Assembly: GCF_004010195.1 (NCBI RefSeq)
Contig: NC_057749.1
Span: forward strand, 16,103,831-16,167,830
Reading direction: 5' to 3'
Length of the DNA: 64,000 bases
Source of the DNA: Chiloscyllium plagiosum
Taxonomy: Eukaryota
This document shows, in pieces, positions 24,646-58,020 of this stretch; position 1 is the first letter of the stretch, and the number at the start of each line of letters is the position of its first letter. Under the pieces are notes generated by a model that had not been told where the DNA came from, made no database searches, and saw nothing but the letters and a program-made list of their open reading frames with translations. The translations under genes and the position numbers were made by a program.

Positions 24646-24889
24646 AATGATAGGTGGGGATACAGCTCATAGAGAGAGAAGAGCAGGTTGACAGACAAAA
24701 GGGTGGATAACAACCAGGCTACGAGAGTGAATAGCTATTAACGGGAACTGTTAGTGGCTAAAATTGGATTATGTGTAACAACAGACAATGTGATATCAAA
24801 GCCCGGTGTGTGAGTGTTGGGGGAAGGACATGGGAGAACTCAAGTCTTAAAATTATTGAACTCGATATTTTATCCAGAAGGATGCATGG

Positions 24890-25630
24890 TTTCCAAGGAG
24901 ACAGAGGATGGTAGGAGACAGAGGGTGGTGGTGGAGGGTTGTTTTTCGGACTGGAGGCCTGTGACCAGTGGTGTTCCACAAGGATTGGTACTGAGTCCAC
25001 TTTTGTTTGTCATTTATATAAACAATTTGGATGAGAATATAGGAGGCATGGTTAGTAAGTTTACGGATGACACCAAAATTGGTGGTGTAGTGGACAGTGA
25101 AGAAGGTTATCTAAGAGTACAAAGAGATCTTCATCAATTGGATCAATGCGCTAAATAATGGCAGATGGAGTTTAATTTGGAAAAAAGCAAGGTATTGTAT
25201 TTTGGTAAAGCAAACAAGGGCAGGACTTTTACAGTTAATGGTTGGGCCCTGGGTAGTGTTGTAGAAGGGAGGACCTACGGTTCAGGTACATAATTCCTTG
25301 AAATTTGCATAACAGGTCGTAGGGTGGTTAAAAAGGTGTTTAGCACGCTTGCCTTCGTTGCTCGGATCTTTGAATATATGAGTTGGGATGTCATGTTGAA
25401 TAGGATGTTGGCAAGATGTCTTCTGGAGCATGCAGTTCTGGTCACCCTGCTATAGAAAGGAGATGATTAAATTGGAGACAGTTCAGAAAAGATTTACCAG
25501 GATGTTGCTGGGAATAGAGGGTTTGATTTATAAAAACAGGCTGGGATTTTTTCACTGGAATATAAGAGGTTGAGGGATGACCTTATAAAAGTCTTGAAAA
25601 TCATGAGGGGCATAGATAAGGTGAATGTGG
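24890..25630 (+). mobile_element. CR1 LINE RT fragment
   Basis: [21 protein letters not shown]...KFTDDTK in ORF 24814..25158. Confidence 0.9.
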
Positions 25631-25634
25631 GTTA

Positions 25635-26790
25635 AAAAAAAGTGTGGTGTTGGAAAAACACAGCCGGTCAGGCAGCATCCAAGGTGCAGGAGGACTGATG
25701 TTTTTAGCATATGTTCTTCATCAATTGGGAGGATGCAGGGGGTGCCAAGGGGGCTGAGAGATAACTGGGAAGGGGAGTGGGGCTAGGGGGAATGTAGCTG
25801 GGAATGCGGTAAGTAGATGAAGATGGAGGGTGATGTTGATAGGTCGGAGTGGAGAGTGGAGTGGATAATTGGGAAGGAGGATGGACAGGTAGGACAGTCC
25901 AAGAGTGTGGTGCTGAGTTGGAGGGTTTGATCTGGGATGAGGTGAAGGGGAAGGGAGATGAGGAAGCTGGTGAAATTGATCCCGTATGGTTGGAGGGTCC
26001 AAAGGTGGAAGATGAGGCATTCTTCCTCTAGGCGTCGGGTGGCTAGGCAGTGGAGGAGGCCCAGGACTTGCATGTCCTTGGCGGAGTGGGAGGGTGAGTT
26101 AAGTGTTTGGCCATAGGGCGGTGGGGTTGTTTAGTGCATGTGTCCCAGAGATATTCTCTGAAACGTTCTGGAAGTTGGCATCCTGTCTCTCCAATGTAGA
26201 GGAGAAGACATCAAGAACAAGGGACACAGTAGATGATGTATGTGGAGGTACAGGAAAGTCTCTGTCAGATGTGGAAGGATCCTTTGGGGCCTTGGATGAA
26301 GGTGAGGGTGAAGGTGTGGACACAGGACACACACACTGTCCCCCTCTCTCTAGGAATAAGAGGGGGACAAGGAACACAGTAGATGATGTATGTGGAGGTA
26401 CAGGAAAGTCTCTGTCAGATGTGGAAGGATCCTTTGGGGCCTTGGATGAAGGTGAGGGTGAAGGTGTGGACACAGGTTTTACACCTCTTACGACAGCAAG
26501 GGAAGGTCAGTGAGTATAGGGTGGGTTAGTGGGGGGGCAGGGGGGGTGCGGGCGTGGACCTAACAAGAGAGTCGCGGAGGGAATGGTCTCTGCGGAATAC
26601 TGAAAGGGGTGGGGAGTGACATATATCTCTGGTGGTGGGGTCTGGACATAGGTGGCATAAATGGCGGAGGATGATGCACTGTATCCGGACGTTGGTGGGT
26701 TGGAAGGTGAGGACCAGGAGGGTTCTGTCCTTGTTGTGATTGGAGGGGTGGGGTTCAAGGGTGGAGGTGCGGGAAATGGAGGAGATCCTG
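25635..26790 (-). mobile_element. Penelope-like element 3' region with an internal ~110-bp tandem duplication
   Basis: [29 protein letters not shown]-type C-terminus. The segment near 26224-26326 repeats near 26374-26476. Confidence 0.85.
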
Positions 26791-27786
26791 CAATCTTTTC
26801 ACATCCGACAGACATTTGGGATGTGGGTGGACCCTCCACATAGGCCACTGAGTGTCTCGAATCACTTCTGCCATTCAATAAGATCATGGCTGATCCTATT
26901 TCTTCTCAACCAGTCTGCAGTTTTTGACACAGTTGAGTGTATCATTCTCCTCCAAAGCCTCTCCACCATTGGCAAACTGTGGGGGGGAGGGAGGCGGTGG
27001 GGATTGCTCTCATCTCGATTCATTCTCATCTACTACATATAGAAAGAAAGTTCATTATGGCTTCTCTTCTGCTAAACCCTGACTTCTGAAGTCCTCATGG
27101 TTCCCCCTTCCAACTCTCCCAGCCACATTAATATCAGCATTTGGTCTGATTTCGGGTAACAGAAAAGTGATTGTAAAAATTTTCTACAGGATTTGAAAAT
27201 GTTCCTGTCACATCCAGCACTCTTGAACAAATCTTGTGAATCCTTAATTCATCTGTTTTGTTCACTGGTATCGACCTGACTTGCAAATGTGCCTGACCCA
27301 CAACCCTGATCCAAGAGACTGAAGGATCTATGTAACGTCTAACCAACATGGTGCTGAAACCAGGGCTCAGTCTGTGTGCCAAGGTCACTATTCATTACAA
27401 CCTTTATTAAACTTTTAAAACCACTAAACATTCATTGCACAATCAAGTTTTGGAATGTATCTCCAGCAGTATTCAGCTTGCAAGTATTCCAATGCATGCC
27501 ACATTCTAATTAAATTCTTATGAACTACTAATAACATACCAGTCTCAACACTATTTTATGCAAATTAGAAAAATGCAATTGAGAACTGATGAGGGTGAGC
27601 AGAAGCATAAGACGTCAGAGTGGCAAACAAAGGGACCTTTTGAAAAGATAAAATCAAGTAAGCAATATCTTTGAATAGTGGATGCCTTAGGACTCACAGC
27701 ACTTCCCTGTCTTTGGAACTCACATCATTCACATCTTTCTACCTTCAGTCTTCTTGCTGCTGTTCTTCCTGCAGGTTGTTCTGAAA

Positions 27787-27929
27787 ATGGCCAGCACTTC
27801 CTTTTTAACCAACAGGAGGACCATTGGCACCCTCATGTTACTGGGGGCTGGCTCTCTGGCCAATGGGTTCTTACTCACAAGGGATTATATGAAAGCAAGG
27901 GCAAAACAGAGGAAATTGTATCCTCCCAG
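27787..27929 (+). CDS. ckmt1-like: Coding exon 1: mitochondrial transit peptide and mature N-terminus ([30 protein letters not shown]...RKLYPPS)
   Basis: aaaATGG Kozak context. GAGSLAxGFLL matches the CKMT1 presequence. Donor AG|gtaag at 27930. Acceptor ttcttcctgcag| ends at 27774. Confidence 0.93.
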
Positions 27930-30900
27930 GTAAGAAAAATATTTACATCTATATAGTTAAAAATCATACAACACCAGGTTATAGTCCAACAGGTTTAATT
28001 GGAAGCACACTAGCTTTCGGAGCGACGCTCCTTCATCAGGTGATCATGACTACATCTATATAGTTTTTTTTCGACAACTGAATGATTCAAAGCACTCTAC
28101 ACTAAATGAGGTATTTGGAAATATAGTCACTGTTGTGGTGTAGCGAACACAGCAGCATTAATCACACTCCAGTCAGCAAGGTGCTAAAGAGAAGGCAATT
28201 AGTTTTTGTTATGTTGATTCAGAGATAGGTATTTGCTCGGATACTCTGAAAAACTCACCTGTTCTTTGTCAAAATAGTGCCACAAAACGTTTATATCTAA
28301 GCTGACAGATATAGCCTTGGTTTAACATTGCATGAAGGTGATGCCTCTCCCACAGTGCAGTACCCCTCACTACTGCTCTGACAGTATCATCCTAGTTTTA
28401 AAAAATCACACAACACCAGGTTATAGTCCAGTAAGTTTATTTGGAAGCACTAGCTTTCAGAGCGCTGCTCCTTCATCAGGTGATTGTGGAGAATAAGATT
28501 GTAAGACACAGAATTTATAGCAAAAGTTTACAGTGTGATTTAACTGAAATTATATATTGAAAAAGACCCGGATTGTTTGTTAAGTCTCTCATCTTTTAGA
28601 ATGACCATGTTGGTTTCAGTTCTTTCATATGTAAATCGCAAAACTTTTTTTACAAGTTATATTCTCAAGTGCACTTTAACAATTGGTGTCATGTCAGCCC
28701 AGATAAGGTATTGAAGGTGTTAACTCCTTGTGAGGCTGTCTGTGCCACAATGGTCAGACTGATTGTAATCTAAAAATCAGATTTACAGAATCTTACATGG
28801 ATTCATGCAGTTTTTGAGCAAAGTAAAATGTAATTCTGCAAGTACAAATTCACCCCACAAACTTATATGTGTATGTGTCATGTGGGTGTGGAGGAGTGGG
28901 GGGTGGGGGTGGAGGTGGTTATGAGTGTCTGTGAGAGGGTGTATGTATGTGTGTGAGTATGAATGTAAAGGGGTTTAAGTCTGTGAAAGGATGTGTGTGT
29001 GAGTGTATGAGAGAGGGTGTGTGTGTATGTGTGTGTGTATATAGTGCAATGGAGGTCACCTATGGTGACCGTCTCCAAATCATCCTAGATTATGTGCTCA
29101 AATCCTAGAATCCATAATCCTGGGATTCAGGTGTAAGGACCAAGTTTAGGCCTATAGAACAAAAATGTGGGATTTTGGTCAGTGAAACTTTCTACAGCTA
29201 CTGGCCAGTTCTCCAGGGAACAAAAAACTTTGAATTTCAGAATTACAGATTGAGCACACTGCCAGTTAACATGGAAATAAATATTTGAGATCATTAATAA
29301 TAACATTTATTGCATTGCATGTTGTATTTTGACAATAGTAAAAAAATTACCCCCATTTTTAAAACCTACTTCTTTAACAAAGATATTTCCCACCCATCCT
29401 AACATCACCTTTGACTCATTGTCAAATCTTGCACTGATTACATTCCCATTAAGTCTCCTTTTGTATCACATTAAAGGTGCTATACATTAAAGGTGCTATA
29501 GAAATACAAATATTGTTGTGGGTGTATATTTATTCTACATTATGCTCTCAGTGCAGAATATCCTGATCTCCAAAAGCACAACAGCTACATGGCAACTTAC
29601 CTGACCCCTGATTTATATGCCAAACTTCATGATAAATCTACATCCAGTGGCTGGACACTGGATCAGTGCATTCAGACTGGAGTGGACAATCCTGGAGAGT
29701 CCATAGGAATAATAGCAGGAGATGAAGAATCATATGCAGTAAGTATAACTGTACTGTGAATATGGCCACTGAAAATACACAGAAAATACTCACATAGTGC
29801 ACAACAAAATCTGTCTATTCCAGGGGAGCATATTTGGATAAACTCAGCCTTGTGTTAGCCAGCCATGATTGCTTCACTTACCTTGTTGTTGTTTGCACTC
29901 TTCCTGAAAGCAAAGCTACCCTGAACTATGACCTCCACCTGGGTTTCTGAGGAAACATATGAATATCCAAAGTTGACAAATGGATCATCAAACCTATCCC
30001 ACTCTTCACTGACCAGAACACAAGGCATTTCTTTTCTTCTGTGAGTCATTGGGTGGGCAACTGATCCACAGGAAATTAATTCATAACCAATGTGCATCAA
30101 AATCCTTTAGAAAATATAATTCAGTAGCACCAGAGAGGTGAAGGAGCACAAGCTGCATTAGGCTCTAGATGTAAAAGGGAATAAATTATTGCTGTAAATA
30201 TCATAATACTGTAAGAGTAATGTATAAGAATAATGTTATAGAGTAATATAATATTACAATAGATTATCAGCAGGAGGTTAGACTGGATCAGGTGGACTTT
30301 GTGGAGAAAAACACTACAGCTGAATGGCTCACCTTTATTCTATAACTTCAGGAGCAGGAAAATGTGGATTGGACACAGCTATTTGAAGGGAAGTCCACAT
30401 TTGAGATGTGGGAGGCTTTCAAAGATAGGTTAACGGTAGTGCAGGATAGGCATGTCCCATTGAAGGCAAAGGATAGGAAAGGCAAGATTCGTGAACCGTG
30501 GATGACAGGAGAAATTGTATGACTAGCCAAGAGAAAAAGGGAAGCGTACATAAGGTCTAGGCAGTTAAGAACAGAACGGGCCCTGGGGAATATCAGAAGA
30601 GTAGGACAAGTCTTAAACAAGGAATCAAGCAGGCTAAAAGAGGTCATGAAATAGCTTTAGCGAGCAGAATTAAGGGAAATCCCAAAGCATTTTATTCTTA
30701 TATAAGAAGCAAGCGGGTAACTAGAGAAAGGATTGGTCCACTAAAAGATAATGAAGGAAGGCTGTGTGCCAAGGGTTGGTGATGATTCGCCATGGCAGAT
30801 TCGCTGCCGATGATTAGCCACTGCCAGTTCTCCACCAGCGTTTCTCCACTGGGGTCGTTTGACCTCTGGAGACTATTTGCTACTGGAAATATATATATGT

Positions 30901-33900
30901 AGTGATTGTTTTCCCTCCCGCCTATTCTTTCATACTTCTCAGTCCCCTTTATTTATACAATTACATACTACGTATTGATAACAAAGAGATAAAATAAATA
31001 TCATTTATTGGTTTATATATAAAATTGAGTTACAAACTTTAACCAGAAAAAGGAAATATATTTTAAAAATCTTTATAATGGCAGTAAAATCTCACATTAA
31101 TATTAAACAGTGAAATTTCAGTTCATTTGATAGTTATGCACTATTCCTCTAAGATATTCCAAACAATCTCTTTCACCATATTCAAGAACAACGCAACGCA
31201 AACACTACCTTAACCAATATAATGACAATTTTATATAGTTTAGATATGCTTGTTCTCTAACATTTTAAACTTTGTAAAATTTTTAAAAATCTATTAACAA
31301 AAATAAATGGTTATTAAAACAAGTAAACGCTACCACCAATATTCAAAATATTGCGGTGGCGAATCGTCTTCAGTGGCCAATGGGCGGTGGCTAAGCGTCC
31401 TCGGTGAACAATGGGCAGTGGCTAATCGTCGGCGGCGAATCTGCTGTGGCGAATGGTGCCATCCCGGTGTGCCAAACCTGAGAGAGTGGGTGAGATTCTG
31501 AATGTTTACTTTGTATCAGTGTTACTGAGGAGAGGAACATGATGAATCTTGAGACTAGAGATAGAAGTTTGATTAGTCTGGATCACGTTGGCATAAGTAG
31601 GGAAGATGTGTTAGGTATGCTAGAGGATATTAAGGTGGACAAATCCTCAGGACCGGATGGGATCTATCCCAGGTTGCTGAGGGAGATGAGAGGGGAAATT
31701 GCTGGGGCCCTGACAGACATCTTTGTGGCATCCTTAAATACAGGTGAGGTGCCGGAGGACTGGAAGGTTGCTCATGTTGTCCTCCTGTACAAGAAGGGTA
31801 GTAGGGATATTCCAGGTAACTACAGACCATTGAGCCTGACGTCGGTGGTGGGGAATTGCTGGTGAGGGGACTGAGAGATAGGCTCTATTTATATTTAGAA
31901 AAGAATGAGCTTATCAGTGATAGGCAACATGGTTTTGTGCGGGGGAGTTCATGCCTTACCAACTTAATACAGTTCTTCGAGGAAGTGACCAAGTTGTTAG
32001 ATGAAGGAAGGGCTGTTGATGTCATATACATGGACTTTAGTAAGGCGTTTGATAAGGTTCCCCATTGTAGACTAATGGAGAAAGTGAAGTCACATGGTGT
32101 GCAGGGTGTTCTAGCGAGGTGGATAAAGAACTGGTTGAGCAGCAGGAGATAGGGAGTAGTAGTTGAAAGGAGTTTCTCAAAATGGAGAAAGGTGACCAGT
32201 GGTGTTCCACAGGGGTCAGTGTTGGGGCCACTGTTGTTTGTAATATACATAAATGATCTAGAAGGGGACACTGTTGGTATGATCAGCAAGTTTGCAGATG
32301 ACACAAAGATTGGTGTAGTAGCAGAAAGCATCAGGGACTGTCAGAGAATACAGGTGAATATAGACTGGAGAGTTGGGCGGAAAAGTGGCAGATGGCTTTC
32401 AATCCAGACAAATGTGAGGTGATGCATTTAGGCAAGTCTAATTATAGAGTGAATTATACAATGAATGGAAGAGCCTTGGGAAAAGTTGATGGGCAGAGAG
32501 ATCTGGGAGTGCAGGTCCATTGTACCCTGAAGGTTGCTGCACAGGTGGATAGAGTGCTCAAGAAGACATATAGTATGCTTGCCTTCATTGGACGGGGTAT
32601 TGAGTAAAAGAGCTCGCAAGTCATGTTAAAATTGTACAAGATGTTGGTTCAGCTGCATTCAGAATACTGTGTACAGTTCTGGTCGCCACATTACCAAAAG
32701 GATGTGGACGCTTTGGAGAGGATGCAGAGTAGGTTTACGAGGATATTGCCTGGTATGGAAGGTGCTAGCTATGAAGAGAGGTTGAGTAGATTAGGTTTAT
32801 TTGCACTAGAAAAAAGGAGATTGAGGGGGGACCTGATTGAGGTTTACAAAATCATGAAGGGTATAAAGTTAAAAATCACACAACACCAGGTTATAGTCCA
32901 ACAGGTTTAATTGGAAGCACTAGCTTTCGGAGCGTCACTCCTTCATCAGGTGATTGTGGAGGGCTCGATCGTAACACAGAATTTATAGCAAAAATTTGCA
33001 GTGTGATGTAACTGAAATTATACATTGAAGAATTGATTGTCTGTTAAGCCTTTCATCTGTTAGAATACAGTGACAGTTTCACTTATTTCATTTGTAAATC
33101 ACAAAACCCTTTTTTTTAAAATTGCATTCTCGGGTTAGCTGTTAACAATGGTGATAACTAGACAATATGNNNNNNNNNNNNNNNNNNNNNNNNNNNNNNN
33201 NNNNNNNNNNNNNNNNNNNNNNNNNNNNNNNNNNNNNNNNNNNNNNNNNNNNNNNNNNNNNNNNNNNNNNNNNNNNNNNNNNNNNNNNNNNNNNNNNNNN
33301 NNNNNNNNNNNNNNNNNNNNTGTGTGTGTGTGTGTGTAGGAATATGTGAGAGTGTGTGTGTGTAGTGCAATGGTGATCACCTGTAATGTGACATGAACCC
33401 AAGGTCCCGGTTGAGGCCCTCCCTATGGGTACCGAACTTAGCTATCAGCCTCTGCTCGGCCACTTTCCTCTGCTGCCTGTCCTGAAGTCCACCTTGGACT
33501 TCGTGGTCCAGGACATTCAGCGTCGGACCTTCGGGTGACCATCCTCCAAGGTGGACTTCGGGAAGGAGGATGGACAGGTAGGACAGTCCAAGAGTGTGGT
33601 GCTGAGTTGGAGAGTTGGATCTGGGATGAGGTGGAGGGGAAGGGAGATGAGGAAGCTGGTGAAATTGATCCCGTATAGTTGGAGGGTCCAAAGGTGGAAG
33701 ATGAGGCATTCTTCCTCTCGGCGTCGGGTGGCTAGGCAGTGGAGGAGGCCCAGGACTTGCATGTCCTTGGCGAAGTGGGAGGGTGAGTTAAGTGTTTGGC
33801 CATAGGGCGGTGGGGTTGTTTAGTGCATGTGTCCCAGAGATATTCTCTGAAACGTTCTGGAAGTTGGCATCCTGTCTCTCCAATGTAGAGGAGAAGACAT

Positions 33901-36900
33901 CAAGAACAAGGGACACAGTAGATGATGTATGTGGAGGTACAGGAACGTCTGTCAGATGTGGAAGGATCCTTTGGGGCCTTGGATGAAGGTGAGGGTGAAG
34001 GTGTGGACACAGGTTTTACACCTCTTTCTCCACTGAACATGCTGAGCTCTTTGGTGCTGCTAACACTTGCTAACAATGTCACCTCCAACCATGCAGGTTT
34101 TTGCTGATATATTCGACCCTGTGATTAGAGAAAAGCACAATGGATACGATCCGAAGATCATGAAACATGTCAAAGATTTGGATGCAAGTAAAGTGAGTAG
34201 AAGCCAAACTGCTATATTCGTATTCAGTTTCTGAAAACAGAGCATTGTCTGCAAAGCTAACATTACTGGAAAACAGAACATAGATGACAGAACAGTACAA
34301 CACAGAAACAGGTTCTTCAGCCCACCACAATCCCATCTGCCTGTACATGATCCATATCCCTCTTTAGCCTGCCTGTTCATGTGTCTATCTAAATGCCTCT
34401 TAAACATTGCTATTGTATCTGCTTCTATCACCTCCCATGACAGTGCTTGTCAGGCACCTCTTTGTAAAAATCTTAACTCACACATCTCATTTAAATTTTC
34501 CACCCTCACCTTAAATCTCTGCCCCTTAATATTTGACATTTCTACCCTGGGAAAAAGACTCCAACTATTCATGCCTCTCATAGTTTATATATTTCTAATA
34601 AGTTGGCCCTCAGCCTCTGATGCTGTAGCATAAATAATCCAAGTATGTCCAATCTTTCCTGATAGCTAATACATTCCAATCCAGACAACGCCTGGTAAAC
34701 CCCCTTGCACCTTCTCTGAAGCCTCCACACCCTTCCCATACTGCAGCAACCAGAACTGCACACAACACTCCAAATGTAGCTTAACTAAAGTTTTATACAG
34801 CTGCAAAATGACCTGCCAACTTTTATACTCAAAGTACCAAGTGATGAAGGCAAATATGCCATATGTCATCTTATCCATTTGTGTTGCCACTTGCAGGAAG
34901 CTATGGACTTGCACCCCAAAATAACATGGAAGCAGCCAAGATAGTGGAAGCTTGAAACAGCTTGGCTGCTTAGCCATTGTTCTCAATGTGCTTTGGTAGG
35001 AAGAATAGAGGAGCAGAATATTATTTAAATGGAGAAACACTGCAGAAAGTTGCATAACCAAGGGATTTGGGAATCCTCATGCATAACTCAGAAAAGGCTA
35101 TCATCCAAGATCAGAAGGTAATAGGGAAGGCAATAGAATTTTGGCCTTATTTCAAAGGAAGTGGTACATAAAATAACGAAATCTTGCTAAAGCTATATAA
35201 GGCACTAGTTACACCACAGGATATTGTCAACAGATTTGGTTCCCTCTGTAAAGAAAGATTCACTGGCATTGGAAACAGTCTAGAAAAATTTCACTAGGTT
35301 GATTCTAGGTATTCCTTCTTACAAGAGGTTGAGTAGGTTAGACCTGTAATCATTAGAGCTTAAGAGAATGAGAAGTGGCCTTATTGAAACATATAAAATT
35401 CTTAAGGGGCTTGATAGAATAGATGCAGTGAAGTTGTTCCCCTTGTGGAACAGTCTAGGACCAGAGAGCATAATTTCACAGTAAGTGATCACCCATTTAA
35501 GAGATAAGAAGAATTTCTTCTCGAAGAGAGTAGGTATTCTTTACCATAGAGCGCTGTTGGGGCTCTATGGTGGTTACTAATAAACAAGGCTGAGATAGAC
35601 AGATTTTTAACCATAAGAAAATAAAGGGTTATAAGGAAAATGCAGGACGGTGGAGTTGAGGATTATCAGATCAACCATGATCTTATTGAGAAGTCTGTAC
35701 GTGATTTGTACGAAGGAATCAATTGGACCAACAGTGGAAATAAAAATTTACAGATAAAACATGAAATGCTGACTGTATTTTTTTTTGTTAGGTATTGAGC
35801 AAAGTCAAGGGGAAACAGGTGGGTAATGGCAATTCACTGTATTTTAATCCAGGCTATTGCTTCAGGTTATAGGATCAATGGCAGCTGCAGAATCCAGAAT
35901 AGAAAGTTAGTTTTAGCGATAGCAATCCGACATGTGATCCCAGACCCACTACAACGTGAGTGAATCTTACCTGCCCTCTGGAAGGCAAACCATTCATTTC
36001 AAGGGAAATTACTTGTGAGCGATGAATCTCTAAAAATAATTTTAAAATCTACCCCCCAGAGGCAGACTTTGTAAAGATTCCAGGCTCAACTATATAGAAA
36101 GCCTGTTAATAAACTGGAAATGGTGCAAAAAAGATTTATAAGGGTGTTTCTGAGACTGGAGGGTTTGCGTTATAAGGAGAGGCTGAATGGGCTGGGGCTT
36201 TTTTTCCTGGAACATAGGAGGCTGAGGGGTGACCTTGTAAAGGTTTATTAAAAAATCATGAGGAGCATGGATAAAGGTGTTTTCCCCAGGGTGGGGGAAT
36301 CCAAAACTGGAGGGCATAGGGTTTAAGATGAGAGGGGAAAGATTTAGAAGGGACACGAGGGACGTTTTCACACAGAGGGTGGTGTGTCTATGGAATGAGC
36401 TGCCGGAGGACATGGTACAGGTGAGTACAATTACAACATTTAAAAGACACTTGTATAGGTATGTTGATAGGAAAGGTATAAAATAATCTGAGCCAAATGC
36501 AAGCAGACGGGACTAGTTCAGTTTTGAAAACCTGGTTGACATGGACAAGTTGAGCAGCAGGGGTCTGTTTCCGTGCCAATAACTCTATGACTCTAATATT
36601 GAGGGAATAAAAGGAAAATACAGCAGATGTTGGAGATCTGAAATTAAATCAGAAAGTGTTGATGAAATTCAACAGGTCTGGCAGTGTCTAAGAAGAGAAA
36701 AACACAGTTAACATTTTTGAGTCTGATACAACTTGTCTTGAGCCAACATTAACAACGTTTCTCTCTTCAGTGTTGCTACGAAACTTGTATTTTCCAGCAC
36801 TTCTTGTTTTTATTTCAACACTGAGGAATAGTGTCACAAAAAAACTGGCTCAGTTAAGCACAAACTATGAAGTTTCCTATCTTTGTTTCCTTTACAGATT

Positions 36901-39900
36901 AGGAATGGACAGTTTGATGAAAACTATGTTCTTTCCTCACGTGTCAGGACTGGTCGAAGTATTCGAGGACTCAGCATGCCTCCTGCCTGCACTCGGGCTG
37001 AGAGGAGAGAGGTGGAGAGGGTGACTGTTGAGGCATTAGCTGGATTAAAGGGAGATCTAGCTGGAAAATACTACAGTCTGAGCAGTATGACAGATAAAGA
37101 GCAGCAACAGCTCATTGATGTAAGACAATGAACCACAATTCATCTTGGTTAGAAGGAACTGGCTGGTGCAGTGACCAGTGGCTTCCACACTAGCATTTCC
37201 AATGTGTCCTGAATGTTTCTTATATCTGCAAGGATTCAATATTGTAAGATTTTGTTAAATAATCACCAAGCTCCTGGGACCCTGCAGTATCGCACTGTCC
37301 CTCATTCTATGTGAATTGACAAAAAACATTCAGAACACTGTTGGTCAGTACAGATAGAGCTCTACTCTGTCTAGCTTTGGTCTAACTAACCTTGAAGTAT
37401 TTGATGGAAACAGTTGTTATGACCCACTTAAGAAAGTCTGTTGATTCTCAAGCCCCACTATTTTCAGGGTCACCACAACAATTAATGATTTAATCAAAGT
37501 AGGAAAAGTCCCAAAATATCTGCCTGGAGGAATCAGGATCTGGCACTTAATGCGAACTACAGTTTATTTCAAAAAGATATGTTTTAGCCAAATTATGAGC
37601 TATCAATTCTAACCCCCTTTTTGAACCCCTACACCCACCATACACAGAGTGGGACAAACAAAGAAAAAAAATTGGAATCACAGTTTAATTTTCCTGGTCG
37701 ACAGACGTCAAGAATGCAGTCCTTTTCTCTTCCCAAGTGTTTCTCTTCTGCTAATTCCTTCCTTCCAGATTCTCAGTTATTTGTCACAGACACAGGGGAT
37801 TTACACTTCAATTGTTAATTTCACAGTTAGAGGAAACAACTGACAGTAAATGAGAGGAGAGAATAGTTGACAATCTTAAAGTTTGGGTTATTTGGCTACA
37901 GAGAGATATGGACATATCCTGCTTCTTCCAGTCTTAAAACCTTTGGTCCCTGTGTCAATTCATCCCTAGTCATTGGCTTTAGAAATAGTTATTTTCTACT
38001 TTAGATCACAATCAATTAGTCAGAGAAATAATAAGATGCGGCCTCCACATGTCTCCAATTCCCACACCTGCAGAGGTCATCATGAAGGTCCATCCTCTCC
38101 AACGCGTTCCTTGCCTGAGATATATTGACTCTCAGGTTAAACCACCACTAGTTGTCTCTATGTAATGAGAGAGAAAGACTATGGTCCTTTGGGACTATTG
38201 CAACTTTACCTTGTACCTTTATATATCGTTACACAAAAAAAAATGCAGTCTTTATACATGTGTACAGGAAACTTTACTCTATATCTTAATCTCATGTTGT
38301 ATATCTTTCTATAGGATCACCTCTTGTTTAACAAACCAGCATCACCTTTCCACTTGTCTTCAGGGATGGCCAGGGATTGGCCCGATGCTCGGGGCATTTG
38401 GTAAGTTTGGATTCAGGAAAAAGGAGAGGATTGTGGCCAGGAAGGAAGGTAAACATGAAGTTTGCAATACTGAATTCCAAAACATCTGGAGATCTGAAAG
38501 TAATGCAGGTCAGCAGAGACAAGGTGGTGCAGGAAAATGATCATGCCAAGATGAGTGTTTCTGGGTCTAAATACAAGTGATGTTTTAAAAATAACCAAAC
38601 CATTCTGTTCCCACGTATCTACAGGTATAATAATGAGAAGACTTTCTCAATCTGGATCAATGAGGAGGACCATATTCGAATTATCTCCATGGAAAAAGGC
38701 GGTAACATGAAGAAAGTGTTTGAGAAATTCTGCCGGGGTCTCAAAGAGGTAAACAGTTATAAGAGCAACCGATCCATTAGGATCCTCCCGCCACTGTTGC
38801 ACAATCTGGAGCAGGCTATTCAGCCCAACATATCTGTCCGGGCTGTTTGAGAAAGTTATGCTGTTAGTCCTAATATTGAAGCCCCTCATCCTAACTCCCT
38901 CCTCACACAGCCCTGTAAATTTTCCCCTTTCAAATGTACCTCCAATTTTAACAGAATAAAAATAAGACCTATTTCAGAAGGAAACATTTCTCCACTAGAC
39001 ACCTTACCTCCTCCTCACTTTTACAAGCTGCCTTTTGTTTCAGTCACTTCCTCTTGAAACTTTGATTTATCCTGCTTCTTTGTTACTTTTGATGAAAATT
39101 GTTGAATTTTCCATGTTTTCCTGGCTTTTCTGTGCCTCATTGTTGAGCATTCATTAACATATGGAGTGGTTCAGGTGAATAGTATAGATTACATTTCGGG
39201 GAAAACGAGTGAACAAACTGAAGAGAAAGGAATGGAGAATGTTATCTTGATGGGGTTAGGTGAAGGTGAAAGGGGGCTGGGAAATCTGGTGTAGACAATA
39301 AGCTGCAGCACAAAATCAAATGCCCTGTTTTCATATTGTACACTCAATGTAACTCTATGACTCCATTCATCCTTGCCACTGTTAGAAAAACAGAATACAA
39401 TGCTGAGATTTGAAACAAAAATGTTTTTTCCAGATTGAGAAACTTATCGCTGAGAAAGGCTGGGAGTTTATGTGGAATGAGAGAATTGGCTACATCCTGA
39501 CATGCCCATCAAACCTGGGCACTGGACTCCGAGCTGGGGTACACATCAAACTACCCATGCTCAGCAAGGTACCAGCTCAATCTCATTTTCCAACTGGGCT
39601 TCAATTCTAATGGACATCATTTACTCTCCATTGTACATGACGCTGAAATCAGTTAGTCCTGATACACAAAACATTCGCAAACTACATGCTGAGAATACCA
39701 GTGAAAGGAAAGGGAATAAGGTAGGTCTCTCTCCTTTAGACGATGATAGAGAACTCCTTGTGAAATTAAGTGACAAATTAGGGGGCTGAGATTCCACAGG
39801 GATTCCTGCTCACAAGAAACAAAACAGAGGCTGCTTTAACATGGAACAGGACTAAACAGAACCTGACATGAACAGCCCACAGGTTAGCTGGTATAAGAAA

Positions 39901-42688
39901 TGGTAATGATCACAAAGACATTACAAGAGTTTGACTGGGGTAAGGGCTGGGGCTCATTGAAGAGGACAGTGCAGAAGGAGCTTTACTGTGCATTGTATCT
40001 CATGCTGTCCCTGCCCTGGGAGTGTAAAAGGAGCTTTACTCTGTCTCTAACCCAGCGCTGTCCCTGTTTAATGAAGACAGTAGAGAGGGAGTTTTACTAT
40101 GTCCAAGTTGTCTTGGGAGTTATTGAAATAAAAATTTTTCTTACCTGGTAGTGAAGCCTCTTGCTGTAACGAGCAGAAAACCACACAGGGAAAAAAAACC
40201 TCTCAAAATTAGAAGAGCCGATGGTATATGTTGACTAGTAGAGTAGAAGGACTGCCATAGATGCAATTACATTACACATACCACAGTATAAAGGGTGTAT
40301 GGTAGGAGTGACCAATGCACAGTGCTTGTGGACACCATTTCCTGTCTTCTCTTTGAGGATACACTCCATCATGCCGTGTGGCACTATCACCTTTATAACT
40401 GGGGTGGAAGAGGTCTAGTAACTCAAGACTGGGCATCTATGAGACTGTGGGCGATCAGCAAAAACAGGACTGCACTCAAACATAATCTGTAACCTCATAG
40501 TCCAGCAGATCCCTCACTGTATCATTACTATCAAGCTACAGGACCAAGTTTGTTCCATTAAAAATGTGAAAGGAGTTGCCGGATGTTCTCATGGAATACA
40601 GGGAGAACTAGCCATTTGGATACAGAACTGGCTCAAAGATTGAAGACAGAGGGTGGTGGTGGAGGGTTGTTTTTCAGACTGGAGGACTGTGACCAGTGCA
40701 GTGCCATAAGGAACGGTGCTGGGTCCTCTACTTTTTGTCAGTTACATAAATGATTTGGATGCGAGCATAAGAGGTACAGTTAGTAAGTTTGCAGATGACA
40801 CCAAAATTGGAGGTGTAGTGGACAGCGAAGAGGGTTACCTCAGATTACAACAGGATCTGGACCAGATGGGCCAATAGGCTGAGAAGTGGCAGATGGAGTT
40901 TAATTCAGATAAATGCGAGGTGCTGCATTTTGATAAATCAAACCTTAGTAGGACTTATACACTTAATGGTAGGGTCCTAGGGAATGTTGCTGAACAAATA
41001 GACACTGGAGTGCAGGTTCCTAGCTCCTTGAAAGTGAAGTCGCAGGTAGATGGGATAGTGAAGAAGGNNNNNNNNNNNNNNNNNNNNNNNNNNNNNNNNN
41101 NNNNNNNNNNNNNNNNNNNNNNNNNNNNNNNNNNNNNNNNNNNNNNTTATGAGAGGCATGGATAGGATAAATAGACAAATTCTTTTCCCTGGGGTGGGGG
41201 AGTCCAGAACTGGAGGGCACAGGTTTAGGGTGAGAGGGAAAAGATATAAAAGAGACCTAAGGGGCAACTTTTTCACGCAGAGGGTGGTACATGTATGGAA
41301 TAAGCTGCCAGAGGATGTGGTGGAGTCTGGTACAATTGCAACATTTAAGAGGCATTTTGGATGGGTAATGAATAGGAAGGGTTTGGAGGGATATGGGCCG
41401 TGTGTTGGCAGGTGGGACTAGATTGGGTTGGAATATCTGGTCGGCATGGACGGGTTGGACCGAAGGGTCTGTTTCCATGCTATACAACTCTATGACTCTA
41501 TACTATCGGGCATAGCCAAAAATGAGGTGTCAATCTGATGGTGCCACAAAGAGGGCTGTTTCGCCTTTCAAACAGCATAAGCAGCAAGTGATAAACAAAG
41601 CTAACAAATTCCTCAATCAACAAGTCAGATCTAAGCTCAGCAATTCTGCCACATCCATTTGCAAATAGTGGACAATTAAACAATTCAATAGAGGAGTAGG
41701 TTCCACAAATATTCCCATTCTTAACAATGGGGGACCCCAGCATTTCATTGCAAAGGATAAGGCTGAGGCAGCCACAACAATCTTAACTTAGTCTTTGGCC
41801 AATGCAATTCACTCCACTTGATATCAAGGAAAGGCAGAAGACACTGAATACTGCAAAGGGTGCTGACAATATTTCAATATTAGTACTGAAGATTTACTCT
41901 CCAAAATGTGGCATACCCTGTAGCCATACTGTTCTAATACAACTGCAATACCGGTATTAATCTAACAATGTTGGACTATAACCTGGTGTTGTGTGATTTT
42001 TAATTTGGATGTTAACAGACAGCTTTTTGTTTGATAGAAGCTCCCTGTTATCTTTAATTTCTGATTCAGGATCCTCGCTTCCCGAAGATCCTGGAGAACC
42101 TGCGACTGCAGAAACGAGGGACAGGGGGAGAGGACACCGAAGCTGTGGACAGCGTGTTTGATATCTCAAACCTGGACCGTCTGGGGAAATCTGAGGTGAG
42201 TTACCACAGTTTATTATACAGTGGTTATGTAATGGGGAAGGCACAAGGGGGCAGTAGGGGAGAGAAAAGTGTACATGAATAGGTTTCCTTGAAGGGATCT
42301 CGAGATAACAAAGGGAGAATTTGTGGGAGGGGTCAGGATTCATTGGGGAAGTGAAGGGGGGAATACAGGGAAATTGGAACAGAAGAAGGGGAGGATATCA
42401 GTTCAGGGATAGATTTCCTTTGGGAAGTGAAGGAAGGATCAAGCATGGCAATTGGACGGGAAAAGAGGCATGGAGAGGGGATTATCTTTCCAAAACAAAA
42501 ATAGGATTCTCCCTCCCCCTTTTGATAATGTAAAAGTCTAATCTTGAATGTCTTGTTCCTTTCTTCAGGTGGAGCTTGTTCAATTAGTGATTGATGGAGT
42601 CAACTATTTAATTGAGTGTGAGAAGAGACTCCAGCAAAGTCACGATATCCAAATCCCACCCGCCCTACGCATAAACAGTTACCATTGA
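27787..42688 (+). CDS. ckmt1-like: Mitochondrial creatine kinase U-type-like phosphagen kinase, 9 coding exons, 412 aa, divergent substrate pocket
   Basis: Hand-spliced exons 27787-27929, 29552-29738, 34097-34192, 36898-37119, 38315-38400, 38625-38748, 39434-39568, 42070-42195, 42569-42688 total 1239 nt in one open frame with GT-AG introns. U-type diagnostic strings: [50 protein letters not shown]. Confidence 0.96.
27959..28050 (-). mobile_element. 92-bp Penelope terminal fragment with hammerhead core, in intron 1
   Basis: 15-bp TSD tacatctatatagtt (27944-27958 and 28051-28065). Minus strand reads cac-CTGATGA-aGGAGC-gtc-GCTCC-GAAA-GCTA-gtg. Confidence 0.85.
28396..29078 (-). mobile_element. 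Penelope 3' UTR fragment with hammerhead core and TG microsatellite
   Basis: 10-bp TSD atcatcctag (28386-28395 and 29079-29088), same terminus as 27959. Confidence 0.85.
29552..29738 (+). CDS. ckmt1-like: Coding exon 2 ([19 protein letters not shown]...[20 protein letters not shown])
   Basis: ctctcag| acceptor and |gtaagt donor. 187 nt, 12 nt shorter than the equivalent human CKMT1 segment. Confidence 0.95.
30350..32865 (+). mobile_element. CR1 LINE ORF2 fragment, interrupted by a DNA transposon
   Basis: ORFs 31539..32910 with [40 protein letters not shown] and FADD. Confidence 0.93.
30773..31466 (-). mobile_element. Non-autonomous Mutator/MULE-like DNA transposon
   Basis: 9-bp TSD gtgtgccaa (30764-30772 and 31467-31475), ~55-bp imperfect TIRs built of ttcgcc/ggcgaa repeats, internal remnant [21 protein letters not shown] (31118-31195, minus). 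Confidence 0.8.
32866..33559 (-). mobile_element. Penelope 3' end with hammerhead core (32921-32949), spans a gap
   Basis: [33 protein letters not shown]-terminus, same terminus family as 28396. Confidence 0.85.
33560..34026 (-). repeat. Near-identical copy of the Penelope segment starting at 25871
   Basis: Long stretches read base-for-base identical with only scattered differences. Confidence 0.85.
34097..34192 (+). CDS. ckmt1-like: Coding exon 3 ([32 protein letters not shown])
   Basis: catgcag| acceptor with upstream gctaac branch-like motifs, |gtgagt donor, 96 nt. Confidence 0.95.
34280..35690. mobile_element. Two decayed CR1 fragments (minus 34280-34920, plus 34990-35690)
   Basis: [17 protein letters not shown] on minus, degenerate CR1 C-terminus and tail on plus. 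Confidence 0.8.
36110..36596 (+). mobile_element. CR1 3' end
   Basis: [14 protein letters not shown], tail ctctatgactct. Confidence 0.88.
36898..37119 (+). CDS. ckmt1-like: Coding exon 4 ([24 protein letters not shown]...EQQQLID)
   Basis: tttacag| and |gtaag, 222 nt, seen in ORF 36883..37131. Confidence 0.97.
38315..38400 (+). CDS. ckmt1-like: Coding exon 5 ([29 protein letters not shown])
   Basis: ttctatag| and |gtaagt, 86 nt, [13 protein letters not shown] motif. Confidence 0.96.
38625..38748 (+). CDS. ckmt1-like: Coding exon 6 ([41 protein letters not shown])
   Basis: tctacag| and |gtaaac, 124 nt, catalytic NEED motif at 38659-38670. Confidence 0.96.
39434..39568 (+). CDS. ckmt1-like: Coding exon 7 ([45 protein letters not shown])
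   Basis: ttttttccag| and |gtacc, 135 nt, CPSNLGT signature with reactive Cys at 39503-39505. Confidence 0.97.
40585..41500 (+). mobile_element. CR1 LINE 3' portion (spans a gap)
   Basis: [13 protein letters not shown] and [15 protein letters not shown], tail ctctatgactct. Confidence 0.92.
42070..42195 (+). CDS. ckmt1-like: Coding exon 8 ([42 protein letters not shown])
   Basis: ctgattcag| and |gtgagt, 126 nt. Confidence 0.96.
42569..42688 (+). CDS. ckmt1-like: Coding exon 9 ([39 protein letters not shown])
   Basis: ctttcttcag| acceptor, TGA at 42686-42688. Confidence 0.95.
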
Positions 42689-42708: not shown

Positions 42709-43880
42709 TAGAGTCATAGTCATACAGATGTACAGCACGGAAACAGACTCTTTGGTCCAACTCGTCCATGCCAATCACATATCCTAACCTAGTCTAGTCC
42801 CATTTGCCAGGTCTTGGCCCATACCCTATTCATAAACCCTTCCAGATGCCTTTAAATGTTGCAATTGTATCAGCCTCCACCACTTCCTCTGGTAGCTTAT
42901 TCCATACACACACCACCCTCTGTGTGAAAATGTTGTCCTTTAGGTCCCTTTTATATCTTTCGCCTCTCTCCCTAAACCTATGCCCTCTAGTTCTGGACTC
43001 CCCGACCCCAGGGAAAAGACTTTGACTATTTACCCTATCCATGCCCCTCAATATTTTATAAACCTCTATAAGGTCCCCCCTCAACCTTCGACACTCCAGG
43101 GAAAACAGCCCCAGCCTATTCAGTCTCTCCCTATAGCTCAAATGCTCCAACCCTGGCAACATTCTTGTAAATCCGTTCTGAATCCTTTCAAGTTTCACAA
43201 CATCCTTTCAATAGGAAGGAGACCAGAATTGCACGCAGTATTCCAAAAGTGGCCTAACCAATGTCCTGTACAGCCGCAACATGACCTCCCAACTCCTGTA
43301 CTCAATACTCTGACCAATAAAGGAAAGCATACCAAACACCTTCTTCACTATCCTATCTATCTGCGACTCTACTTTCAAGGAGCTATGAACCTCCACTCCA
43401 AGGTCTCTTTGTTCAACAACACTCTCTAGGACCTTATCATTGAGTGTAAAAGTCTTGCTAGGATTTGCTTTTCCAAAATGCAGCACCTTGCATTTATCTG
43501 AATTAAACTCCATCTGCCACTTCTCAGCCCATTGGTCCATCTGATCAAGAACCCATTGTAATCTGAGGTAACCTTCTTTGCAATCCACTACACCTCCAAT
43601 TTTGATATAATCTGCAAACTTACTAACTATACCTCCTATGTTCACATCCAAACTGTTTATGTAAAAGACAAAAAGTAGTGACCCAGCACTGATCCTTGTG
43701 GCATTCCACTGGTCACAGGCCTCCAGTCTGAAAAACAACTCTCCACCTTCTGCCTTAAAGCCAGTTTTGTATCCAAATGGCTAGTTGTCCCTGTGTTCCA
43801 TGAGATTTAACCTTGCTAACCAGTGTCCTATGGAAAACCTTGTAGAACACCTTACTGAAGTCCATATAGATCACGTCCAC
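42709..43880 (-). mobile_element. CR1 LINE 3' portion
   Basis: ORFs 42830..43198 and 43208..43738. Confidence 0.93.
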
Positions 43881-51539: not shown

Positions 51540-53500
51540 TAGAACATGGAACAGTACAGCACAGTACAGGCTTTTTGGGCCTCAATGTTGTATCAGCCTT
51601 TTATCCCACTCTAAGATCAGACTAACCTATATACCCTTCATTTTACTATCTTCCATGTGCCTATCCAAGATTTGTTTAAATGTCCCTAATGTATCTGACT
51701 CTATTACCACTGCTGGCAGTGCATTCCAGGCACCCACCACTCTCTGTGTAAAGAACCTACCTCTGACATCGCCCCTAAACCTTCCTCCAAACACCTTAAA
51801 ATTATGCCTCCTCGTGATAGCCATATTCACCTGGGAAAAAGTCTCTGGCTATCCGTTCTACCAATGCCTCTCATCATCTTGGACACCTTGATCAAATTGC
51901 CTCTCATCCTTCTTTGCTGCAATGAGAAAAGCCCTAGCTCCCTCAACCTTTCTTCATAAGACATGCCCTCCAGTCCAGGCAACATCCTGGTAAATCCCCT
52001 CTGCACTCTCTCTAAAGCTTCCACATCTTTCCTATAATGACGTGACCAGAACTGAACACCATATTCCAAGTGTGGTCTAACTTGGGCTTTATAGAGCTGC
52101 AGCATAACCTTGTGGCTCTTAAACTCAAACACCCTGTTAATGAAAACCAACATACCGTACTCCTTCTTAACAACCCTACCAACTTGGGTGGCAACTTTGA
52201 GGGATCTACGTACATGGACTCCAAGATCCCTCTGTTCCTCCACACTGCCAAGAATCCTGCCTTTAACTCTGTATTCTGCATTCAAATTCAACCTTCCAAA
52301 GTGAATCACTTCACACTTTTCCAGGTTGAACTCCATCTGCCTCTTCTCAGCCAAAGTTAAAAATCACACAACACCAGGTTATAGTCCAACAGGTTTAATT
52401 GGAAGCCCACTATCTTTCACTGTTGGACTATAACCTGGTGTTGTGTGATTTTTAACTTTGTACACCCCAGTCCAACACCGGCATCTCCAAATCATTCTCA
52501 GCCCAGTTCCGCATCCTGTCAATGTCCCAATGAAACTTACAACAGCTGTCCACACTATCCGCAACTCCACCAACTTTTGTATCATTGGCAAACTAACCCA
52601 TCCTTCTACTTCCTCATCCAAGTCATTTATAAAAGTCACAAGGAGCAAAGGTCCCAAGAACAGATCCCTGCAGAACACCACTGGTGACTGAGATCCAGGC
52701 TGAATACTTTCCATATACCACCAACCTCTGTCTTCTATGGGTGAGCCAATTCTGTATCCAGACAGCCAGATTTCCCTGTATCCTATGCCTCCTTACTTTC
52801 TGAATGAGCCTATCATGGGAAACCTTATAAAATACCTCGCTAAAATCCAGGTACACCACATCACTGCTCTACCTTCATCAATGTTTATTGTCACATCCTT
52901 ATAGAATTCAATAAGGTTTGTGAGGCATGGCCTACCCCTCACAAAGCCATGCTGACTATCTCTAATCAAACTATGGTTTTCCAAGTAATCATAAATCCTG
53001 TCTCTCAGAATCCTCTCCAATATTTTGCCCACCACTGATGTAAGACTGACTGGTCTGTTATTCCCAAGATTATCCCTATTCCCTTTCTTGAACAAGGGAA
53101 TAACATTTACCACCCTCCAATCATCTGGCACTACTCTAATAGACAGTGAGAACGCAAAGGCACAGCAATCTCTTCCCTCATTTTTTGCATTATCCTTGGG
53201 TATATCCCATCCGGCCCAGGTTATTTATCTATTCTTAGGTTTTTCAAAGTTTTCAGCGCATACTCCTTCCTAACATCAACCTGTTTGAGCATATCAATCG
53301 GTTTCATGCTGTCCTCAGAAACGTCAGGTCCCTCTCAGTAGTGAATATTGATGCAAAGTATTCATTAAGGTCTTCCCCTTCCTCCTCCTACTCCAGGCAC
53401 AAGTTCCCTCCATTCTCCCTGATCAGCCCTACCCTCACTCTGGCCATCCTCTTGTTCCTCACTTAAGGGTAGAAAGCATTAGGGTTTTTGTTAATCCTTG
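51540..53500 (-). mobile_element. CR1 LINE ORF2 with a nested Penelope fold-back insert (52353-52494)
   Basis: ORFs 51627..53131 carry CR1 RT motifs. The insert is flanked by TSD ttctcagcc (52344-52352 and 52495-52503). Confidence 0.92.
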
Positions 53501-56500: not shown

Positions 56501-58020
56501 TTCTGTGGGAAGCTAGAGAAGTGATTGTTGGGCCCTTGCTGAGATATTTGTATCATCGATAGTCACAGGTGAGGTGCCGGAAGACTGGAGGTTGGCAAAC
56601 TTGGTGCTACTATTTAAGAAAGGTGGTAAAGACAAGCCAGGGAACTATAGACCAGTGAGCCTGACATCGGCGGTGGGCAAGTTGTTGGAGTGAATCCTGA
56701 GGGACATGATGTACATAAATTTGGAAAGGCAAAGACTGATTAGGGATAGTCAACATGGCTTTGTGCGTGGGAAATCATGTCTCACAAATTTGATTGAGTT
56801 TTTTGAAGAAGTAACAAGAAGAACTGATGAGGGCAGAGCAGTAGATGTGATCTATATGGACTTCAGTAAAGCATTCAACAAGGTTCCCCATGGGAGACTG
56901 ATTAGCAAGGTTAGATCTCATGGAATACAGGGAGAACTAGTCATTTGGATACAGAACTGGCTCAGTGGTAGAAGACAGAGGGTGGTGGTGGAGGGTTGTT
57001 TTTCAGACTGGAGGCCTGCTACCAGTGCAGTGCCACAAGGATTGGTGCTGGGTCCACCGGTTTTTGTCATTTATATAAATGATTTGGATGCGAGCATAAG
57101 AGGTACAGTTAGTAAGTTTGTAGATAACACCAAAATTTGAGGCGTAGTGGACAATGAGAAAGGTTACCTCGGATTACAACAGGATCTTGATCAGATGGGC
57201 CAATGGACTGAGAAGTGGCAGATGGAGTTTAATTTTGATAAATGCGATGTGTTGCATTTTGGGAAAGCAAATCTTAGCAGGACTTAGACCTTAATGGTAA
57301 GGTCCTAGGGAGTGTTGCTGAACAAAGAGACCTTGGAGTGCAGATTCATAGCTCCTTGAAAGTGGCGTCGCAGGTAGATAGGATAGTGAAGAAGGCGTTT
57401 GGTGTGCTTTCCTTTATTGGTCAGAGTATTGAGTACAGGAGTTGGGAGGTCATGTTGTGGCTGTACAGGACGTTAGTTAGACCACTTTTGGAATATTGCG
57501 TGCAATACTGGTCTCCTTCCTATCGGAAGGATGTTGTGAAACTTGAAAGGGTTCAGAAAAGATTTATGAGGATATTGCCAGGGTTGGAGGATTTGAGGTA
57601 TAGGGAGAGGCTGAACAGGCTGGGGCTGTTTTCCCTGGAGCATTGGAAACTGAGGGGTGACCTTATAGAGGTTTATAAAATCATGAACGGCATGGATAGG
57701 ATAAATATACAAGGTATTTTCCCTGGGTCCAGAACTAGAGGGCATAGGTTTAGGGTGAGAGGGGAAAGATATAAAAGAGACCTAAGGGGCAAACTTTTCA
57801 CACAGAGGGTGGTACGTGTATGGAATGAGCTGCCAGAGGATGTGGCGGAGGCTGGTACAATTGCAACATTTAGAAGGCATTTGGATGGGTATATGAATAG
57901 GAAGGGTTTGGAGGGATATGGGCCAGGTGCTGGCAGGTGGGTCTAGATTGGGTTGGGATATCTGGTCGGCATGGATGGGTTGGACCGAAGGGTCTGTTTC
58001 TGTACATCCCTATGACTCTT
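53500..58020 (+). mobile_element. Near full-length CR1 LINE (5'UTR, zinc-finger/esterase ORF1, APE-RT ORF2), inactivated
   Basis: ORF1 MALSRVMCSSCRMW...ICNKC, esterase-like GD...[34 protein letters not shown], 3' tail. Many stops and frameshifts. Confidence 0.93.

Follow-up and report, generated by a model that had tools for sequence, protein, structure and literature searches.

A tandem duplicate of mitochondrial creatine kinase in the shark Chiloscyllium plagiosum carries Lys96, a shortened specificity loop and Glu325, and may be retuned away from creatine

What does it mean for a vertebrate mitochondrial creatine kinase (MtCK) to carry lysine at residue 96, where creatine kinases (CKs) carry arginine? 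The question is raised by a gene on the forward strand of a 64,000-nucleotide stretch of the genome of the shark Chiloscyllium plagiosum (RefSeq assembly GCF_004010195.1, contig NC_057749.1, positions 16,103,831 to 16,167,830; C40:16103831-16167830 in our genome coordinates), here called the window, in whose numbering positions are given below. A first-pass annotation had singled out this lysine and proposed that it favours a guanidine with an anionic tail, as in taurocyamine or lombricine. We find that the gene is a spliced and transcribed relative of CKMT1, in which the lysine stands together with a deletion in the guanidino-specificity (GS) loop and a Val325 to Glu replacement. That the product, a mitochondrial phosphagen kinase, has been retuned away from creatine, with Lys96 as a second-shell adjustment beside the shortened loop, is a reading to which we give an even chance. 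Among the papers open to our search for MtCK paralogs of sharks or of Chiloscyllium, none deals with this gene.

The gene was modelled from the coordinates of CK-like peptides in stop-to-stop open reading frames (ORFs) of the + strand. It has nine coding exons, with GT-AG borders at every intron and an open frame of 412 amino acids, and the conceptual protein shows 0 differences from the NCBI model XP_043536382.1 ("creatine kinase U-type, mitochondrial-like isoform X1", Chiloscyllium plagiosum). The exons are as follows:

27787..27929, + strand: coding exon 1, with the ATG and the mitochondrial presequence; RNA contigs begin at 27773, after AG
29552..29738, + strand: coding exon 2, which encodes the GS loop within the N-terminal domain; 187 nt vs 199 nt in the canonical copy; 0 other letters in the contigs of 4/4 runs
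34097..34192, + strand: coding exon 3, 32 codons, AG/GT borders, phase 0; carries Lys123
36898..37119, + strand: coding exon 4
38315..38400, + strand: coding exon 5, nonsynonymous divergence (dN) 0.174 vs the canonical paralog
38625..38748, + strand: coding exon 6, NEEDH catalytic motif kept
39434..39568, + strand: coding exon 7, CPSNLGT reactive-cysteine motif kept
42070..42195, + strand: coding exon 8, C-terminal flexible specificity loop
42569..42688, + strand: coding exon 9, including the stop codon

The window gene is spliced and transcribed, as seen in spliced contigs when four sequencing runs were compared with the window (X1, X3, X4 and X6; the kinds of run are guessed, and among the runs holding exon 2 none is recorded as RNA). 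In contigs of X1, X3 and X4, 27773-27926 continues straight into 29549-29738 without a mismatch, and X6 covers exon 2. In record 8 of X3, exon 1 is followed by exon 2, then by 96 letters, which is just the size of exon 3, and then by exon 4. The correctly joined intron-less form was found in two studies, and a processed copy is unlikely because a search of the species' own genome gave exon-by-exon matches only. The RNA contigs also carry about 80 letters 5′ of 27773 that are not present in 27700-27772, which points to a non-coding 5′ exon further upstream.

By its Pfam domains, fold, and catalytic and nucleotide-binding residues, the product belongs to the phosphagen (ATP:guanidino) kinase family. 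PF02807 scores 107.4 bits against a cut-off of 25.7, PF00217 264.2 bits against one of 22.4, and residues R157, R159, R162, R236, E258, E259, D260, C310, R319 and R347, which occupy invariant or nearly invariant columns of a 53-sequence family alignment and include the arginines that bind phosphate, the acidic residues of NEEDH and the reactive cysteine, are all kept. An AlphaFold2 model, read at the level of the fold and not for side-chain contacts of Lys123, has a mean predicted local distance difference test score (pLDDT) of 86.7 and a predicted template modelling (TM) score of 0.84, with pLDDT below 50 only at presequence residues 1-36 and the last three residues. Its Foldseek matches take in MtCK, CK, and arginine (AK), glycocyamine (GK) and lombricine (LK) kinase chains at TM 0.86-0.98 (normalised by target), with MtCKs on top at 0.94-0.98. 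The best PDB sequence match is ubiquitous MtCK (uMtCK, 715 bits), and identity to human uMtCK is 76-78%. With MtCKs as its closest relatives, the same exon structure and a presequence, the protein is of U-type MtCK (CKMT1) descent.

Three elements of this protein set it apart from CKs, with equivalences to human CKB (cytosolic CK numbering) counted on the alignment:

29688..29723, + strand: GS loop, four residues shorter than the CK loop NPGHPFIKTVGMVAGD, with the Ile69 equivalent absent
34133..34135, + strand: Lys123 codon AAG, in frame, codon 123 of the precursor, equivalent to Arg96
42130..42150, + strand: EDTEAVD in the 325 loop, where Glu352 corresponds to Val325, Glu355 to Ala328 and Asp358 to Gly331

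The lysine itself is a real substitution, more than chance and fixed in Hemiscylliidae. Window positions 34121-34147 (+) translate as VIREKHNGY, and the first-pass reading of AAG directly before HNGY is borne out by the translation, the frame of exon 3 and the identity with XP_043536382.1. Lys123 aligns opposite the Arg of ERHNGY in human uMtCK and opposite Arg96 of DRHGGY in human CKB. It is not noise, since Hemiscyllium ocellatum and Chiloscyllium punctatum carry this Lys too. The change had been described as one of a single base; against the AGA of the neighbouring canonical copy, AAG differs at two. Taken alone, Arg96 to Lys is a modest and conservative change, and its co-occurrence with two others, on which the first-pass annotation had laid weight, holds true: these are the GS-loop deletion and Val325Glu.

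The residues missing from the GS loop are the equivalents of His66-Ile69 of human CKB, which leaves a loop of the length found in the AK class. In the 325 loop, the codon of Glu352 is GAG vs GTG in the canonical paralog, and three acidic residues have been gained relative to that copy. The creatine signature, namely a full-length GS loop with Ile69, Arg96 and Val325, is thus altered at all three points. Ile69 and Val325 are described as the specificity pocket of Torpedo CK (PMC12387690), and Arg96 of CKB as contacting creatine through water, with R96P leaving 17.6% of kcat/Km and a Km of 9.1 vs 2.05 mM (PMC10557616). Because the methyl pocket (Ile69 and Val325) is lost and the water-bridging Arg96 replaced, the window enzyme is most likely not optimised for creatine. 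Besides the deletion, the window protein departs from columns conserved at ≥95% at 11 sites, five of which fall within the GS loop, next to it or at residue 96 (V99I, V102I, E110A and R123K, with T136K nearby). Residue 123 and the GS and 325 loops are invariant among three hemiscylliid species. A basic residue at position 94 that would compensate for Glu325 was considered and ruled out, as Lys94 occurs in 61 rows that carry Val325.

How unusual this combination is among MtCKs can be seen in a survey of 177 MtCK-like rows of 340-480 residues (rows include isoforms). Position 96 is Arg in 166 rows, Lys in 5, a gap in 4, Pro in 1 and Ile in 1, and all five Lys96 rows, which include the window protein itself and isoforms, are hemiscylliid. 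Position 325 is Val in 152 rows, Glu in 21, a gap in 2, Gln in 1 and Ile in 1, and Asp or Asn at 331 accompanies Glu325 in 19/21 rows vs 0/152 Val rows. The four-residue deletion is confined to hemiscylliid rows. Canonical chondrichthyan rows read Arg96 and Val325 in 31/31 cases, and both cytosolic-type CK loci of the own genome read Arg as well (DRHGGY), so that lysine is not the residue of bona fide shark CKs. As for conservation among orthologues, Lys96 is fixed in the three hemiscylliids and the possible orthologues outside the family keep Arg96 (6/6 non-hemiscylliid elasmobranch Glu325 rows). Outside Hemiscylliidae, Glu325 is found in these extra MtCK copies and in one further protein:

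Heterodontus: two copies, full-length loop, Arg96
Amblyraja, Rhinoraja and Pristis: loop two residues longer, AK-like RGxRGENT motif, Arg96
The eels Anguilla, Conger and Synaphobranchus: Arg96
Scortum (perch): Arg96
The frogs Phyllobates and Leptobrachium: Arg96
One unnamed GK-like protein: Glu325 also present

On this distribution, Lys96 arose together with the loop deletion. In elasmobranchs, the extra copies share a contig with the canonical copy.

A wider search of representatives gave 7015 proteins at E ≤ 0.001, of which the best 150 were examined; 140 of these yielded 248 domains covering more than 250 profile positions. Two GS-loop classes dominate, one of CK length (121 domains) and one four residues shorter (77 domains). 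Residue 96 is Arg in 44 and Lys in 9 of the CK-length loops; the short-loop domains have 33 Tyr, 14 Trp, 7 Leu, 5 Arg and no Lys there. Arg96 is thus linked to the long loop (44/121 vs 5/77, Fisher p 6.5e-7, a descriptive value as the domains are phylogenetically related). Glu325 occurs in 37 short-loop domains and Val325 in 14 long-loop Arg96 domains, so that two sets of states co-occur: long loop, Arg96 and Val325, and short loop, Tyr or Trp96 and Glu325. As judged from these alignments, the window gene has departed from the CK state at each of the three coupled sites. The domains with Lys96 come from uncharacterised sources, namely a two-domain protein of an orthonectid, a protein of a dinoflagellate and unnamed transcripts, and their names carry no functional information.

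That residue 96 tracks substrate class, as the first-pass annotation had it, is a rule already in print, where the site is numbered 95: in the account of PMC3836730, CK has Arg there, AK has Tyr, GK has Ile and LK has Lys, while taurocyamine kinase (TK) has His in its cytoplasmic and Lys in its mitochondrial form. The same source describes the residue as making no direct contact with the substrate, and as lying near it and organising the hydrogen-bond network; it reports that K95Y shifted the earthworm LK toward taurocyamine, that larger substrates go with shorter GS regions, and that the GS region of TKs is shortened (PMC3836730).

Compared with characterised systems, the window protein resembles uMtCK (CKMT1; PDB 1qk1, 7u5i, 9b04) and the canonical shark CKMT1 in presequence, fold, nine exons and catalytic residues. 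It differs from CKMT1 in the loop shortened by four, the lack of an Ile69 equivalent, Lys96, Glu325 and Asp331. With annelid LK and mitochondrial TK it shares descent from the CK lineage, Lys at 95/96 and, going by the published description, perhaps a shortened GS region (PMC3836730), and LK 3jpz matches its fold at TM 0.95 with 57% sequence identity; unlike these enzymes, the window gene has an independent origin within shark CKMT1, outside the annelid clade. Its GS loop is four residues shorter than that of CK vs five published for cytoplasmic TKs, the comparison with LK and mitochondrial TK being made by published description. The GK of Namalycastis (PDB 3l2d, 3l2e, 4v7n) has the pattern GGE......D, its loop reading GGESSLATD, and the Glu325 and Asp331 of the window motif GGEDTEAVD match it. 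However, GK has Ile96 and a GS loop one residue longer than that of CKB, whereas the window protein has Lys96 and a loop four shorter. Arginine kinases (1bg0, 4rf6) and a trematode TK (4wo8) likewise have a loop four residues shorter than CK and Glu325, but they carry Tyr96 (Trp in some unnamed domains) and GEH instead of GED, and they sit on other branches of the family. The Schistosoma TK has Tyr at 96 and the GEH motif. Of the arginine-kinase signature, the window protein shows the loop length and Glu325 without Tyr96. The extra MtCK copies of other vertebrates share Val325Glu with Asp or Asn at 331, but all have Arg96 and none the four-residue deletion. No known class matches the window protein at the GS loop, residue 96 and the 325 loop together.

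The canonical gene from which these departures are measured lies close by. A second MtCK gene is found at C40:16177678-16207954 on the same strand, and starts about 31 kb downstream of the stop codon of the window gene. Its reassembly from six loci gives a matching set of nine exons and the motifs HPFIKTVG, ERHNGY and GGVDTAAVG, and its protein differs from the canonical C. punctatum protein at 2 positions. Because this neighbour has the same strand, the nine-exon layout and canonical motifs, the window gene is a tandem duplicate of canonical CKMT1. The own-genome search with shark MtCK gave 37 matches, and counts drawn from it are lower bounds. CK loci comprise the tandem pair of MtCK genes, two cytosolic-type genes (C41 and C10) and one very divergent CK-like gene (C9). 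The last of these, at C9:39655000-39669000, has about 40% identity, Tyr at the residue-96 position (ELYHRDY) and a conserved arginine motif that reads ICQVSTGRNVDDF; it may be a non-catalytic relative. The canonical C. plagiosum CKMT1 has DQSIQ in place of the DQCIQ found in C. punctatum and almost all MtCKs; this may be a genuine substitution or a fault in the assembly.

Two stretches are still copied between the neighbours by gene conversion:

36852..37322, + strand: conversion tract 1, 471 bp, 99.4% identical to the canonical paralog; exon 4 and flanking intron
39141..39901, + strand: conversion tract 2, 762 bp, 96.6% identical to the canonical paralog; exon 7 and flanking intron

Within them, 0/74 codons of exon 4 differ between the paralogs and 45 codons of exon 7 hold 3 differences, vs synonymous divergence (dS) of 0.34-0.93 in the remaining exons. 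Outside the tracts, exons are 71-84% identical to the paralog and introns do not align. Exon 3, with its lysine codon, lies beyond both tracts; it has not been homogenised by conversion, since it is only 83.6% identical to the paralog over 110 bp (dS 0.896, dN 0.103).

Conversion also bears on how old the duplication is. In the protein tree the window gene nests within the shark U-type CKMT1 clade, and as a result of conversion such a tree sets each lineage's extra copy next to its own canonical copy. A tree of 210 columns, from which the tracts and the trait sites were excluded, gave no resolution. On these columns a single clade of the 8 elasmobranch Glu325 copies was not rejected, its log-likelihood being 2.94 higher (approximately unbiased test, p-AU 0.568). 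One old tandem duplication followed by conversion is therefore as good an account as several recent ones.

The window copy has evolved quickly under constraint. Over 411 codons, the two paralogs show dS 0.406, dN 0.096 and omega (dN/dS) 0.237. A relative-rate count with four outgroups found 39-48 replacements unique to the window copy vs 6-9 unique to the canonical one (chi-square 18.8-30.6), and the hemiscylliid stem branch of the tree measures 0.19, that of the canonical lineage 0.035. Were some 85% of the replacements its own, omega on the branch of the window copy would be roughly 0.4, a faster pace than that of the canonical gene but well below neutrality.

The window copy has kept its phosphoryl-transfer machinery whole, and three elements that fit the guanidino substrate have been rebuilt: the GS loop, through loss of four residues including the Ile69 equivalent; the 325 loop, through Val325Glu and Gly331Asp; and residue 96, through Arg96Lys. 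If the enzyme has indeed been retuned away from creatine, the substrate is probably a different, likely longer guanidino compound, or the specificity has broadened. Lys96 would then adjust the network of hydrogen bonds and water next to the shortened loop and would not act as a stand-alone code for an anionic tail.

Several points weigh against such retuning. The short loop, Lys96 and Glu325 occur together in 0 of the 248 domains, and the combination has no characterised precedent. Nor are the three changes an obligatory package, because Glu325 copies with Arg96 and a full-length or longer loop are known from Heterodontus, skates, sawfish, eels and frogs. Arg to Lys preserves charge and is conservative, and an omega of about 0.4 on the window branch fits simple relaxation of constraint too. 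Tanaka and Suzuki, in 2004, reportedly found that earthworm LK with K95R had a better affinity for lombricine as well as for taurocyamine, from which it would follow that the choice between Lys and Arg alone does little.

The alternative that survives best, though we consider it unlikely, is that the protein remains a creatine kinase, as an MtCK isoform of particular tissues or conditions in which the three changes tune Km, kcat or regulation. Its closeness to human uMtCK and the full set of catalytic residues agree with this, as does the charge kept at residue 96. Such an isoform could also be needed, since no sarcomeric (S-type) MtCK locus is found among the 37 own-genome matches, a lower bound. 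What speaks against it is the loss of both creatine methyl-pocket residues, the near constancy of Arg96 and Val325 among MtCKs and their presence in every canonical chondrichthyan row, and the fact that Glu325 is the state of glycocyamine and arginine kinases.

It is distinctly improbable that Lys96 marks a taurocyamine- or lombricine-type enzyme that selects a sulfonate or phosphodiester tail, as the first-pass annotation had suggested. In its favour, taurine is abundant in elasmobranch tissues. LK and mitochondrial TK have Lys at this site, and the GS loop is shortened as published for TKs (PMC3836730). However, residue 96 is described as a second-shell position and not a direct contact (PMC3836730, PMC10557616), and it is not a substrate code, because TKs show His, Lys or Tyr there. 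Lys96 is found in nine domains with CK-length loops and in none of the short-loop ones, named bearers of Lys96 being the orthonectid and dinoflagellate proteins, and the relatives that share Glu325 all keep Arg96. The gene nests in shark CKMT1 and not in the annelid group, and its 325 loop has turned more acidic, which, as weak evidence, gives no sign of an anion site. These observations do not support the idea of lysine as a preference for anionic-tailed guanidines.

That the copy is drifting under relaxed constraint, as a weak enzyme or a non-catalytic subunit of MtCK oligomers whose changes are tolerated damage, would accord with protein evolution five to seven times faster than in the canonical copy, with 15 replacements between the two Chiloscyllium species vs 2 in the canonical protein, and with the lability of GS-loop length from one Glu325 copy to another (+2 in batoids, -4 in hemiscylliids, -5 in one eel model), but is highly improbable given an omega of 0.24 between paralogs, an ORF and splice sites intact in three species, splicing and transcription, untouched catalytic residues, and the constancy of residue 123 and of the GS and 325 loops in those species.

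Some features of the gene and its surroundings stand apart from these questions. The C-terminal tail encoded by exon 9 (42569-42688) has lost most of the basic residues of the canonical copy's RLQRGQDIKIPAPIAQSRR. The basic residues at the C-terminus of MtCK help to bind cardiolipin, and given their loss membrane binding of the window protein may differ. A Pfam scan of 69 other long ORFs of the window gave only reverse-transcriptase and GDSL/OSK repeat pieces. Introns and flanks hold debris of long interspersed nuclear element (LINE) type, with reverse-transcriptase fragments and one GDSL-lipase/OSK-like ORF:

24814-25155, 31494-32910, 56694-57137 and 61622-62110: LINE-type debris
42830-43780, 52796-53224 and 59153-59575, - strand: LINE-type debris

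RNA contigs pile up on these LINE-type repeats at very high summed depth. Another observation concerns a repeat with near-identical long ORFs on both strands, which lies at 25700-26510, upstream of the gene, and again at 33380-34015 in intron 2; the intron-2 copy stops about 80 bp before exon 3.

What the locus offers to the biology of the family follows from the combination described here. Vertebrates are described as having CK as their sole phosphagen kinase (PMC3018575); the window gene is a vertebrate family member that lacks the creatine methyl-pocket residues and the pocket arginine, yet is open, spliced, transcribed and under purifying selection. It also serves as an example of how an old duplication can be hidden from protein trees by conversion. 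On a broader view, which we put forward tentatively and would sooner bet against than for, the hemiscylliid mitochondrial phosphagen kinase may act on a non-creatine guanidine (glycocyamine, taurocyamine, arginine or a related compound), as the first such case in vertebrates, and the scattered Glu325/Asp331 copies may represent an overlooked old class of retuned enzymes kept CKMT1-like by conversion. If the substrate has changed, the gene would be a natural, recent and traceable case of a substrate switch in a phosphagen kinase, with intermediate forms in other fishes that carry Glu325 alone or Glu325 with a longer loop, and it would point to an unknown energy-buffer metabolite in sharks.

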